From the IMG/VR virus record IMGVR_UViG_2869953405_000008, positions 1 through 21,533 of that record: a stretch of DNA of 21,533 nucleotides, one strand, 5' to 3'. This document shows positions 1 to 6,000 of this stretch, one piece after another. The position numbers were made by a program. Source of the DNA: a virus. Taxonomy: Duplodnaviria > Heunggongvirae > Uroviricota > Caudoviricetes. Position 1 is the stretch's first letter; every line of letters begins with the position of its first letter.

Positions 1-3000
1 ATGGACGAACAGTGGGGCTATGTCGGGGCTAAATCGCGCCAGCGCTGGCTGTTTTACGCGTATGACAGTCTCCGGAAGACGGTTGTTGCGCACGTATTCG
101 GTGAACGCACTATGGCGACGCTGGGGCGTCTTATGAGCCTGCTGTCACCCTTTGACGTGGTGATATGGATGACGGATGGCTGGCCGCTGTATGAATCCCG
201 CCTGAAGGGAAAGCTGCACGTAATCAGCAAGCGATATACGCAGCGAATTGAGCGGCATAACCTGAATCTGAGGCAGCACCTGGCACGGCTGGGACGGAAG
301 TCGCTGTCGTTCTCAAAATCGGTGGAGCTGCATGACAAAGTCATCGGGCATTATCTGAACATAAAACACTATCAATAAGTTGGAGTCATTACCCGATATC
401 CTGCTGAGAACATAAACACCCACGGATCGAGGCGTACGCTATCATGTTGCTGTGCACCGCCCAGTTTATAATTGGCGATGGTATCGATATCCATGTACCA
501 CACTGACATGTTTTAAAAAATGCAATAAGACATTGTATCTGAAAGAAAAAACAGGATTTTGAGGCGCTTTTTTATACCGTTTTCCGTGTTTTTAACTGCC
601 TGATTTTATTGAAATCTTTTTTAGTTTTGCAGAAAGGATTTTTTGCTCGATCGCTTTAATTTTATACATTCCTGATAACGGAAATTTTTTTGCCCGTTGA
701 CAGTTTTTGTTCTCCGGGGCTATATTCCTCACACAACCGCAAAATCGGTTGTCGGGATTGGCGTCTCGGATAACATCACAACGCATAGCCGCGTTTGCGG
801 TTTTTTTTGCGTTAAGCATTGCCACATTCGCATTATGGTGGGGCGTGCAGGGGCGGAGAAATCCGCGCCGGGTTTTGTGATGACCGGTTACGCCAACCCT
901 GTACGTCTCACCACCTCCCTGATTGGCGTCAGAGGTGGTGATCATCCAATTAATTGGAGTCATCACATATGAATACAGCTATAACTTTTTCTAACGAGTC
1001 ACCAAAAGTCTTTTTCAAAGATGGTCGCCTGGTTACCACCTCTCAAGCTGTTGCCGACTACTTCGATAAACAACATAAACACGTTTTAGCTAAGATTGAC
1101 ACACTCGACTGCTCTCCCGAATTTACATCAGCCAACTTTTCGGCCGATGTTCAGACTGTCGAAATTGGCAACGGCGCAGAACGTGAATCACGATGCTACC
1201 TGATCACAAAAGACGGCTTCATGTTCCTCGTAATGGGATTTACTGGCAAAAAAGCAGCCAGACTAAAAGAAGCTTACATTGAAAAATTTAACGCAATGGA
1301 AGAAGAACTCCACAAACGTCCTCCTGCAGCACAAAACTCCCCCGCCCCAAATAATGGATGCGCATTACTGATCCACTTCGATAAACACGGTCAGGTCGAG
1401 TTCACAGAAAAAGTCCCCGCCGATGCGATGGTATGCACTCTGGAACGGTTTAAATTTTATCTGGAGCAACATGGGTGGATCGTTGCCCGTAAAGAACAAT
1501 TGGTGGAAAGGTTGATGCGGTTTTAATGAATGCAAAACCCCGGATGATCACCGAGGTTAATTTTATCGAGCGTGATTGCCGCTAATCGCCATCGCTCTGA
1601 TTGAGCGTAAATCATTCAGGTTATTCAGTTCTTCCTTCTGCTCTCGCTGACGTCAATAAATCCCATCATTGCGATCAACCTCATCCTTAACCATTGATGC
1701 GAGCAGTTCTTCCAGTTTCTGCGCTGACAGCTTTACCTGGTGATCTTCAGCATCTTCCCGGGCTATTGTGGTTCGCGCAGTGGCTGATTTTGCTGACATC
1801 ACCACAGGGGGCAGACGGACCATTGAACCATGGCCTCCGGAACAAATAAGGGCAAAAATAACAACCACTATCGAAAGCTCACAAACTAACCGCAGCACGT
1901 TCCTGCATACGACGTGTCTGCGGCATAATCCCAATGATTACTCCCTGACAGGATTTGCAGGCCACTCAATATCAGGTGCAGTTGATGTATCAACACGATT
2001 CAACAATACCCGATATTTATTCCATGCCTCCAGCAACGATCTTTCTTCCTCCGTTGCGATTTCCAGATCTACAGCATCCTGCAGTGGCGCAATATACTCA
2101 CTAAATTCCTGGATGTAGAACTGTGTGGTGACGGTCTTCCAGCCATTCGGCTCCTGCTGTATCGAAGCATACTAGGCTATTTCAATATCGCTATGCTGCG
2201 GCAGCATTTAACCCCTTGTAATTCATCGCCATAATTGATTTAATTCACAAATAAAACTATAACATGGTGAAATCAATGAAAACAAACACAGATGATGGGG
2301 CTAAAATTTACACACCACTTACCCTAAAGCTTTATGACTGGTGGGTTTTGGGAGTATCAAATCGGCTTGCATGGGGATGTCCTACAAAGGAACACCTTCT
2401 TCCACACTTTCTGGAACATTTAGGTAACAACCATCTGGATATTGGTGTTGGAACTGGGTTTTACCTTACTCACGTACCTGAGAGTAGTCTGATATCTTTA
2501 ATGGATTTGAACGAAGCTAGCCTGAACGCGGCATCTACAAGGGCTGGGGAATCAAAAATTAAACATAAAATTAGCCATGATGTTTTTGAACCTTATCCCG
2601 CGGCGTTACATGGTCAATTTGATTCCATTTCCATGTTTTACCTTCTTCACTGCCTGCCTGGAAATATATCTACAAAAAGCTGTGTAATACGCAATGCGGC
2701 GCAGGCCTTAACTGACGATGGAACTCTATACGGAGCCACAATTCTTGGCGATGGAGTTGTGCACAATAGCTTCGGTCAAAAACTGATGCGCATTTACAAT
2801 CAGAAAGGCATCTTTTCAAACACAAAAGATTCCGAAGAAGGCTTAACACATATACTCTCAGAGCATTTCGAGAATGTTAAAACCAGGGTTCAAGGTACTG
2901 TAGTAATGTTTTCCGCTTCAGGGAAAAAATAGCATCCAACCGCAGCACGTTCTTGCTTAAGACGTGCTGCGGCATAATCCCAATGATTACTCCCTGACAG

Positions 3001-6000
3001 GGTTCGTAGGCCACTCAATATCAGGTGCAGTTGATGTATCAACACGGTTCAGCAACACCCGATACTTTTTCTAGGCTTCCACCACCAGCACGACAAGATG
3101 CCGCATACAGTGCCCCAGTCAGTCCAGTTTTCAGACAACCAGTGCGTCACCTTTTTGAAGGCGCTTTAAAGCACGTTTTAATCCAGGTCGGCCTGTCCTT
3201 GTTCCGCTTAATTTATCTTCAAATATTTGTTCATATCCTGCACAAACAAGAGCGTTTCGTTGCAGGTCTGTATTCTGGTCATTTGTTGATACCCTTACAT
3301 AGCCAATCAGCACGCTGAATCTCCCGTCCAAAAGCACAAATCATGCCATGCAGGCCAGAAACCGCCATTATCTAAAACCTCGGTTTACGAGAACTCGGCA
3401 CAAGCGGGGAGAAAATACCGTTACTCAGTACAGCGAATACCTGGACTAATCGACAAACATTCAGCGGTGGCCTTTCTGGTGAACTATCCGGCAATGCTTC
3501 TACAGCTGCAAAATTAAAAACTGCCAGGAAAATAAGCAATGTGGCTTTTGATGGTTCCTCCGATATCACATTAAAAGCAAGTCATGTTGGTGCGTTTGCC
3601 TTAGGGAAAACAGGAAGCACCGTTGCGAATGATAAAGCAGTTGGATGGAACTGGAGTAGCGGAGCCTATAACGCAACTATTAGTGGTGCATCAACGTTAA
3701 TTATTCATTTTTATATGGGAGAAGGAAGTTGTCCTGCAGCTCAGTTTCGGATTAATTATAAAAATGGCGGTATTTTTTATCGTTCAGCCCGTGATGGTTA
3801 TGGTTTTGAAGCCGACTGGTCCGAATTTTACACCACCAGAAAACCTTCAGCAGGAGATGTTGGTGCACTGCCGTTATCTGGTGGTCAACTGAATGGTGCA
3901 CTGGGTATCGGAACATCCAGTGCTCTTGGCGGTAATTCGATTGTATTGGGTGATAATGACACGGGCTTTAAACAAAAAGGCGATGGTAATCTGGATGTTT
4001 ATGCTAATAACGTCCATGTTATGCGCTTTGTCTCCGGAAGCATTCAAAGTAATAAAACCATAAATATTACGGGACGTGTTAATCCCTCGGATTACGGTAA
4101 CTTTGATTCCCGCTATGTGAGAGATGTCAGACTTGGCACACGAGTTGTTTAGACCATGAAGAAAGGCGTGATGTATGAAAAATCAGGCCATGTAATCACG
4201 GGGCTTGGTATTATCGGTGAAGTCGATGGTGATGATCCGGCAGTATTCAGACCAATACAAAAGTTAATTAACGGAACATGGTATAACGTATCGCAGGTAT
4301 AATCATGCAGCATTTAAAAAACATTGTCGCAGGTAATCCAAAAACCGTTGAACAATACCAGCTAACAAAGAATTTTGATGTTATCTGGTTATGGTCCGAA
4401 GATGGAAAAAATTGGCATGAGGAATTAAAAAACTTTCAGGAGGATACAATAAAACTGGCTTACACAGTTGAGGGAATAATTATTGCTATAGACAAGGATG
4501 TATCAGCAATTAATCCAGAAGGTTTAAGTGTCGTTGAGTTGCCTGATATTACAGCAAATCGCCGGGCTGATATTTCGGGCAACTGGATGTTCAAAGATGG
4601 TGCGGTGATAAAGCGAACTTATACCGAGGAAGAGCAAAGGCAACAAGCGGAAAATGAAAAGCAGAGCCTGCTGCAGCTCGTCAGGGATAAAACCCAGCTG
4701 TGGGACTCTCAGCTACAGCTGGGCATCATTTCCGATGAGAATAAACAAAAATTAACCGAGTGGATGCTCTATGCGCAGAAGGTTGAATCCACAGACACCT
4801 CCAGCCTGCCAGTAACGTTTCCCGAACAACCAGAATGAGAGAAGGCCCGCTATCGGGCCTTAATTTTTATTCAGGCTTTTGTGGCCATTCAGGATTTGCC
4901 GTATCCACACGGCTGACCAGAACACTGTAGCGTTCCCATGCTTCCAGTCGTGTGCGTTCCTCGTCTGTTGCCATATTCAGCCTGACAGCTCGTTCCAGCG
5001 GCTGGATGACTGATTCAGCTTCGGAAAGCAATGCGGCCTTTTGTGATTCGGCCTGTTGTTGCAGTTCCTGTTCTGTATATTCCCTCTTTACTACTTTACC
5101 ATCCAGAAACATCCATTTTCCGTTATTGTCTGCGTGACGATTTGCCGTAATATCAGGAACTTCAACTATGCTTAGCCCTTCAGGATTAATAGTTGAAACG
5201 TCTTTACTGACAGCAACGATGATGTTGTTCTCATCGTAAGCAATTTTTATGGTGTCTGGCTGAAAATTCTTTTGTTCCTCATACCAGTTTTTGCCATCTT
5301 CGCAAAAGAGCCATACCACGCCCGCTTTTTTAGTTAGCTGGTATTGTTCCGGTGTTTTCGGATTCCCGGCCTTAATATTTTTCAGGTGCATCATCTTAAA
5401 CACTCCCCACGTTGTACCATATTCCCCCAATCAATTTCTGAATTGGCCTTCTGGCAACAGTGTCGACAATATCATCCGCATTGCTGTTAATTGCGGCTGT
5501 TAAAACATAACCTGACGCATCGCCAAAGCCGTAGTCGCGCCATACGTTTTTATATTCAATGCTGCCAAGACGAATATCCCGAACGACATGATTATGCAGC
5601 CATGTGCTTAACCAGTTGTTTTCCCACACTGAACCATAAATATCGCCACTAGACGCAACTTGCGCACCACTTCCCAGCGCAAATTGAGGTAGCCTGAGTT
5701 TAACGGACACTCCTTCCTGAAATAGAATGGCATCAGAAGGAGCTAATAATGAGCAGAAAAACCCAACGTTACTCTAAAGAGTTCAAAGCCGAAGCTGTCA
5801 GAACGGTTCTTGAAAATCAACTTTCGATCAGTGAAGGCGCTTCCCGATTATCTCTTCCTGAAGGCACTTTAGGACAATGGGTTACCGCCGCCAGAAAAGG
5901 GCTCGGTACTCCTGGTTCCCGCACGGTGGCTGAACTGGAATCTGAAATTCTGCAACTGCGTAAGGCGTTAAATGAAGCTCGCCTTGAGCGAGATATATTA

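Follow-up and report, generated by a model that had tools for sequence, protein, structure and literature searches.

A methyltransferase gene between tail-fibre-assembly repeats in a decayed ompW prophage is part of the common DLP12-type tfaX-ybcY-tfaD block

Lambda-like prophages are known to carry accessory ("moron") or virulence cargo, e.g., cdtABC, 3' of their tail-fibre genes. The late operon of phage lambda ends with the tail-fibre-assembly gene tfa, a hairpin, and ea47, the first accessory gene, which is antisense to tfa. In the DLP12 prophage of Escherichia coli K-12, the MG1655 annotation lists tfaD, ybcY (a pseudogene), and tfaX (b0561-b0563), near appY and ompT. Here, we analysed a stretch of 21,533 nucleotides assigned to a virus of the class Caudoviricetes (IMG/VR record IMGVR_UViG_2869953405_000008, positions 1 to 21,533; hereafter, the window), in which a gene for a class I S-adenosylmethionine (SAM)-dependent methyltransferase is flanked by two direct repeats, called A and B, made from the 3' ends of tfa genes. 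This is the already known, very common DLP12-type tfaX-ybcY-tfaD prophage block, inherited as a fixed unit. The repeats are very probably the scar of a single old non-allelic recombination, after which the block was fixed and spread by homologous recombination. As a discovery the locus has little weight, since the block is annotated in K-12, and genomes by the hundreds to thousands, as well as phage isolates, carry it in nearly the same form. Its interest is that of a worked example of how accessory genes become fixed beside tail-fibre genes through recombination scars, and it shows the hairpin of lambda tfa as a recurrent module border.

The comparison with K-12 is direct. The genes, their order, and their orientation are the same, as is the hairpin between ybcY and tfaD, and positions 1961-3084 of the window align continuously with the DLP12 locus (96.9%). 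Over 2119-2937, identity to K-12 strains rises to 98.8% of nucleotides, and on this sequence evidence the methyltransferase gene is the orthologue of K-12 ybcY, with repeat B as the counterpart of the 3' end of tfaD. A relationship to YmfD of prophage e14 (b1137), which the initial annotation had considered, was rejected: BLASTP gave E = 14 and no meaningful alignment. The two loci also differ in several respects. The K-12 ybcY is a frameshifted pseudogene, whereas the window has an intact open reading frame (ORF); the K-12 tfaX lacks its 3' end and hairpin A, homology starting at 1961, whereas repeat A is complete in the window; the K-12 tfaD is longer and joined to a terminase remnant, whereas the right-hand tfa of the window is reduced to ~30 codons fused to the invertase gene pin; and the K-12 prophage sits at argU, whereas that of the window sits at ompW. 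Still, tfa-derived sequence lies on both sides of the methyltransferase gene and antisense to it in K-12, in strain EC958, and in phage 2G7b alike.

The block is widespread. Methyltransferase DNA is present in 3844 of the 5426 complete E. coli genomes to which all our genome counts refer, and the whole arrangement (1500-3600, 2.1 kb) is found in 377 of them at 99.5% identity, strains of sequence type 131 (ST131) included. A complete copy A is joined to the block in 869 genomes only. In EC958, where the block adjoins trpA and an ompW remnant, the RefSeq order is Rha regulator, DUF4376 pseudogene, tfa pseudogene (the left remnant), class I methyltransferase, tfa pseudogene, partial recombinase (the pin remnant), and tail-fibre genes. 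The lambda-like phage isolates 2G7b, ev243, and the PhiR series carry the block between tail genes and genes for a hydrolase, ompT, and an integrase, with window positions 1983-3084 represented in 2G7b and ev243. The lineages differ in where the block is cut on the left: at 1888 where copy A is complete, at 1961 in K-12, at 1983 in 2G7b, ev243, and O157, and at 2181 in Nissle.

The repeats themselves (Table 1) were recovered by a repeat search of the window as two pairs of direct segments, 1918-2035/2967-3084 (118 nt) and 1888-1916/2938-2966 (29 nt), both at 90% identity, whose spacings of 1049 and 1050 imply one indel between the segments. Taken together they span ~148 bp and are 89% identical, with a single 1-nt indel; pairwise alignment shows a sharp onset of similarity at 1888/2938 and a fading by ~2035/3084. 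The initial annotation had described direct repeats of ~133 bp and ~90% identity, which are indeed real and direct and somewhat longer than proposed. It had also read their content correctly: the minus-strand translations of both copies terminate in the C terminus of a tail-fibre-assembly protein, then a stop, and a palindrome follows, imperfect and with one bulge in hairpin A (1890-1923) and with perfect 11-bp arms in hairpin B (2940-2972). The tfa end within repeat B has in addition an in-frame TAG at 3071-3073. The methyltransferase gene does not lie exactly between the repeats, as had been stated. It converges on the right-hand tfa with 5 nt between its stop codon and the start of repeat B, while on the other side the left tfa remnant reaches 2174 and the A/B similarity ends 229 nt upstream of the ATG, so that the placement is asymmetric.

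Table 1. Positions of the features of the methyltransferase block in the window
Feature	Position	Strand	Description
Direct repeat A	1888-2035	-	Hairpin A, 14-nt spacer, tfa stop (1938-1940), last ~32 codons of the left tfa remnant
Left tail-fibre-assembly remnant	1938-2174	-	77 C-terminal codons and stop; counterpart of K-12 tfaX
Methyltransferase upstream region	2175-2275	+	Promoter-like hexamers (consensus scan)
Class I SAM-dependent methyltransferase, ybcY orthologue by sequence	2276-2932	+	Probably 218 aa; longest ORF, from ATG 2264, is 222 aa
Direct repeat B	2938-3084	-	Hairpin B, tfa stop (2987-2989), last ~30 tfa codons
Truncated pin invertase gene	3085-3337	-	Resolvase N-terminal domain, ~84 codons, one internal stop; fused directly to repeat B

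How did the two copies arise? In a scan of IMG/VR with an exact 38-mer of the tfa 3' block, which hit more than 119 contigs, the spacing was always 1049 bp where the 38-mer occurred twice on a contig. A relaxed search for direct pairs spaced 930-1050 bp gave 69, and all 69 enclose this methyltransferase, with variation only in the surviving length of copy A. In K-12, O157, 2G7b, and ev243, homology to the window runs without a break across 2174/2175, where the left tfa remnant meets the upstream region of the methyltransferase, and this junction is identical in every context that keeps the remnant, which points to one ancestral event. Furthermore, A and B diverge by 11% from each other, and each is 97-99.5% identical to its own counterpart elsewhere. 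Hence, they represent two tfa alleles and not a recent duplication. That one gene is tightly bracketed by repeats in direct orientation is what one would expect of a recent local tandem duplication, or of a long target duplication left by insertion of the methyltransferase in this genome, but we give almost no credence to either: copies of 148 bp that are 11% diverged carry different hairpin types and have near-identical counterparts in hundreds of genomes and in free phages, the block contains neither a transposase gene nor terminal inverted repeats, and the 3' part that pin lacks does not reappear beyond the block, as a simple insertion into pin would require.

The observed losses of the gene or of the remnant tell the same story. 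In phage Ayreon (L007, 3388-3688) and in locus L041, the methyltransferase ORF has been cleanly deleted except for its last 32-36 nt, and positions 2121-2237 of the window, from the upstream region, now run directly into the gene end (window 2897 onward) beside hairpin B and tfa. In the Nissle type, ompT lies directly upstream of the methyltransferase and there is no left tfa remnant. These deletions, together with that in the contig L028 described below, all used breakpoints other than the repeats, and among the loci compared none had the left flank of A joined to tfa without the methyltransferase. From the constant junction, the single gene enclosed by all 69 pairs, and the losses at other points, we therefore read the repeats as a scar and not as a working cassette, and an insertion or exchange of the cargo through them is unlikely.

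The scar probably goes back to two lambda-like parents, one with the order methyltransferase-hairpin-tfa and the other with the order flank-hairpin-tfa. A crossover between the methyltransferase upstream region of the first and the middle of the tfa of the second would yield one intact tfa and, across the cargo from it, a second hairpin with a tfa tail of 77 codons. Homologous recombination in the conserved tfa 3' block and in neighbouring sequence would then have carried the composite from prophage to prophage, and in the present lineage the right-hand tfa would separately have become fused to a truncated pin. More generally, illegitimate or non-allelic joints would make composites, and selection would retain those with one intact tfa.

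The joint at which this happened is not peculiar to the block. In lambda (J02459, 22574-22607), the same CCGCAG...CTGCGG hairpin directly follows the tfa stop, and lambda shares the conserved tfa 3' block, its homology to the window ending at the outer edge of the hairpin. Unlike the window, lambda has a single copy, with no methyltransferase and no second tfa remnant. Nearly all sequence variants found 3' of tfa fold into a stable stem-loop, and the CCGCAG-type stem is kept in 16 variants, with compensatory changes at 2 of the 12 pairs. Past the hairpin, the sequences diverge: 98 occurrences of the tfa 3' block plus hairpin in IMG/VR contigs are followed by 10 unrelated clusters. The right-hand partner of the methyltransferase block is of at least three kinds: it may be the pin remnant or one of two or more types of full-length tfa gene. 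One locus (L075) has an empty configuration, with a full tfa, a B-type hairpin, another flank, and no methyltransferase. The tfa 3' end with its hairpin is thus a genuine mosaic joint and a recurrent module border of lambda-like phages.

Other cargo occurs at this border. In L097 (645-2267) and L134, a lambda-type hairpin and an A-type hairpin enclose a gene 100% identical to lambda ea47; the A-type hairpin has the same 22-nt outer flank as window positions 1866-1887. This makes a second case of cargo between two hairpins. In L028 (4523-8171; IMG/VR contig 3300029091_000062), the stop codon of a full-length tfa is separated from hairpin B by three ORFs, which we take, from their sizes and the N-terminal sequence of CdtB, to be cdtA, cdtB, and cdtC. 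Attached to the hairpin are 14 nt left over from the end of the methyltransferase region, and an alpha/beta hydrolase gene comes next. This looks like toxin cargo at the same tfa/hairpin joint. The window shares with the phages that carry moron-type cargo an independent gene where the late operon closes with its tail-fibre genes, and a joint marked by a recombination scar. It differs from L028 in the exact position, cdtABC being co-oriented with tfa and between stop codon and hairpin, whereas the methyltransferase is antisense and beyond the hairpin. Two further sets of candidates were rejected. The yciG, yciF, yciE, and catalase genes found between hairpin B and a full tfa in an O157 locus (L003) are chromosomal neighbours of ompW that lie between two prophage pieces and not a cassette. 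Spacings of 2.8-4.3 kb in L003, L066, and L137 come from separate tfa remnants farther along the accessory regions and not from cargo pairs.

Could the tfa 3' end and hairpin be dedicated exchange points, the repeat pair forming a cassette site where different cargo is swapped? The many unrelated sequences bordered by the hairpin and tfa 3' block, the presence of cdtABC and of ea47 at the same joint, the latter between two hairpins, and the several right-hand partners of the methyltransferase block are all in line with it. We nevertheless consider it unlikely. Every close repeat pair holds the same gene with the same internal junction, the joint of the left A flank to tfa without the methyltransferase was not found, the losses fell elsewhere, and cdtABC occupies a different point. 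Nor is an intact recombinase linked to the block, in which pin is truncated, and the hairpin does not match the crossover-like site described below. The earlier suggestion that tfa 3' ends are modular exchange points hence holds for the mosaic border, where other cargo does occur, and not for the repeat pair; the database search for the module around other cargo returned ea47 between hairpins and cdtABC at another point, and no other cargo between the repeats.

Lambda recombines, in a Red-dependent manner, with the 88-96% identical stf/tfa genes of Rac and Qin, and inserting a foreign gene in the tfa-ea47 interval does the phage no harm (De Paepe et al., PMC3945230). Taken together, the evidence on the border, on the cargo, and on Red exchange therefore makes composites plus ordinary homologous exchange the best-supported mechanism, that is, classical lambda-like mosaicism and not a new device. 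Several points weigh against our interpretation. The founding recombination is a reconstruction, and so are its two presumed parental phages. The Nissle/B2 arrangement was evaluated as a pre-scar ancestor and rejected: it is a 2G7b-like layout from which a deletion at a 7-nt microhomology removed the hydrolase gene and the tfa remnant, and the comparison thus yielded no pre-scar state. The covariation of the hairpin is weak, most stems being simply conserved, and its U-tract is poor, which leaves a terminator role putative. Finally, the left tfa remnant is conserved widely enough to have its own PHROG and may have a function.

The hairpins fold more stably than shuffled controls on the tfa-sense strand (z of -3.9 and -5.4). 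The tails 3' of the stems are partly U-rich, and a consensus terminator scan marks part of hairpin A (minus strand) and none of hairpin B. From these features the hairpin could act as a weak terminator, or as a stabiliser of the 3' end of the transcript, at the close of the late operon. A 45-aa ORF (2877-3014, minus strand) overlaps the 3' end of the methyltransferase, hairpin B, and the tfa remnant; RefSeq calls it a "hypothetical protein" or "nucleocapsid protein" in E. coli genomes, and it is very likely a spurious call.

A bolder extension has two parts, and together we regard them as doubtful: the tfa 3' block and hairpin would be a preferred joint that organises the gain and loss of cargo, and YbcY would methylate a lipid or metabolite of the host to the benefit of the lysogen. 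If so, the joint might be favoured by annealing of the Red/RecET type or by selection for a bidirectional insulator, it would organise lysogen-expressed cargo (ybcY, cdtABC, ea47, and others) at the ends of late operons, and paired hairpin copies would mark successive acquisitions. A benefit of YbcY to the lysogen would account for how common it is, at ~70% of E. coli genomes.

The persistence of the left tfa remnant suggests another possibility, in which it forms a functional pair with the methyltransferase, a TfaX-like protein or an antisense transcript working with the enzyme or regulating it. This would explain why the two travel together so constantly. The remnant accompanies the gene in most contexts, it matches Pfam Caudo_TAP (E 3.7e-25) and an 88-aa family of its own (PHROG 2341, E 1e-50), K-12 annotates tfaX as a protein, and genomic systematic evolution of ligands by exponential enrichment (SELEX) predicts divergent promoters in the spacer (PMC3946193). 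Yet we hold such a pair to be very unlikely. The remnant has no usable start codon in the window over its 77 codons and is closed by an upstream in-frame TAG (2172-2174), its left end differs by lineage (1888, 1961, 1983), the Nissle/B2 type has an intact methyltransferase without it, and homologues of the enzyme in Enterobacter (60-64% identity) have no adjacent tfa. The remnant is best seen, with repeat A, as part of the recombination scar.

For the spacer between the remnant and the gene there is work on K-12, in which genomic SELEX identified a constitutive sigma-70 promoter (TTGATT-17-TATAAC) and an H-NS site between ybcY and tfaX (PMC3946193). Both hexamers are present identically in the window, at 2235-2240 and 2258-2263, and were also picked up by our consensus scan with the 17-nt spacing, so that the same promoter is predicted here. 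An alternative pair, TTAACC (2208-2213) and CATAAT (2230-2235), is separated by 16 nt.

The class assigned to the methyltransferase in the initial annotation is borne out by Pfam, the ORF 2264-2932 (plus strand) matching Methyltransf_12/23/25/11, as well as by PHROG 2132 (E 9e-156). Its length of 222 aa is probably an overestimate. Sequence comparison favours ATG 2276 as the true start and hence a protein of 218 aa, the length of PHROG 2132 and of every homologue; in Nissle, moreover, the upstream ATG is an ACG. A Shine-Dalgarno-like GGTGA precedes ATG 2276. The protein has a Rossmann-like methyltransferase fold with a glycine-rich SAM-binding motif, and an AlphaFold model built from 26 sequences reached a predicted local distance difference test score (pLDDT) of 90. 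Its top structural neighbours are phosphatidylethanolamine, phosphoethanolamine, juvenile-hormone-acid, and natural-product methyltransferases, with a few tRNA enzymes, and they cover many substrate classes at similar scores. Matches to NCBIfam were all below threshold.

An enzyme that modifies DNA against restriction, or that belongs to a defence system, would suit the accessory position in a prophage, and PADLOC gave one marginal match (mad2, E 0.0026). We find this highly improbable. The ORF matched no DNA-methylase family of Pfam, no DNA methylase was among its best 50-60 structural neighbours, where enzymes acting on small molecules, lipids, and natural products prevail, the protein is a single 218-aa domain without a target-recognition domain, and the window has a separate N6_N4 DNA methylase (12410-13468, minus strand). 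Probably, the methyltransferase gene is an accessory one that has a sigma-70 promoter of its own and whose product acts on a small molecule or lipid rather than on DNA. Homologues with 56-70% identity occur across the Enterobacterales, without informative names. A scan of genome contigs gave 14 loci only, mostly from E. coli and Shigella, and the neighbourhoods of the Enterobacter and planctomycete-like homologues offered no pathway clue. In Enterobacter cloacae (L016, 1362-4657), a 64%-identical homologue lies beside a 470-aa ORF without assigned function, dcp, and ydfG, with no tfa nearby; the enzyme family is therefore also found outside tail-fibre contexts.

To the right of the block, the pin remnant (Pfam Resolvase, E 4.6e-15) stays in frame down to ~3085, at the right edge of repeat B. 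It had been thought that repeat B truncates pin. The remnant does abut the repeat, and this tfa/pin junction is found in 538 E. coli genomes. The same fusion occurs in L118 without the methyltransferase and with another hairpin variant and flank, which makes the loss of the pin 3' part an event of its own. A 25-nt sequence (TCTCGTAAACCGAGGTTTTAGATAA) at 3368-3392 (minus strand), close to the pin start on its upstream side and present once in the window, presumably represents a crossover site of the Gin/Pin inversion type. The region 3400-5710 resembles the Pin/Gin/Cin invertible segments of e14, Mu, and P1, with convergent tfa genes (4305-4838 and 4867-5430), alternative C-terminal ends of the fibre, the crossover-like site, and pin. 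It differs from them in that one crossover-like site is left and pin is truncated; the invertible tail-fibre segment is therefore probably frozen. Repeats A and B also set the window apart from these systems, as they are direct and not inverted, lie outside the invertible segment, and are unrelated, hairpins included, to the crossover-like site.

The wider region belongs to a decayed lambda-like prophage at ompW, of which it is the accessory end proximal to attR. Positions 394-651 share 87.6% identity with the segment that Stx-phage records label "duplication due to insertion" for ompW-integrating prophages (PPompW), which places the prophage end at ompW, and a fragment of an IS1 transposase occupies the start of the window (1-378). 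Three ORF pairs of equal size (100 aa + 272 aa) are found at 5749-6905, 10476-11632, and 18084-19240; the first, to which alone Pfam was applied, is IS3-family-like (HTH_Tnp_1 + rve). Genes for a holin, tail fibres, Q, and RusA are also present. The ompW duplication-like left end, IS1, the holin, Q, and RusA genes, and the insertion sequence (IS) copies together therefore identify a decayed lambda-like prophage at this site. Further prophage genes on the minus strand form a late-regulatory region resembling that of Stx-type lambda-like phages, with a 617-aa protein combining a sialate-O-acetylesterase-like (SASA) domain and DUF1737 (8024-9877), the N6_N4 DNA methylase (12410-13468), and, at 14041-16298, the antiterminator Q, RusA, and a DUF968 protein. 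The IS copies cut up the prophage, and such a heavy load is typical of Shigella-like genomes.

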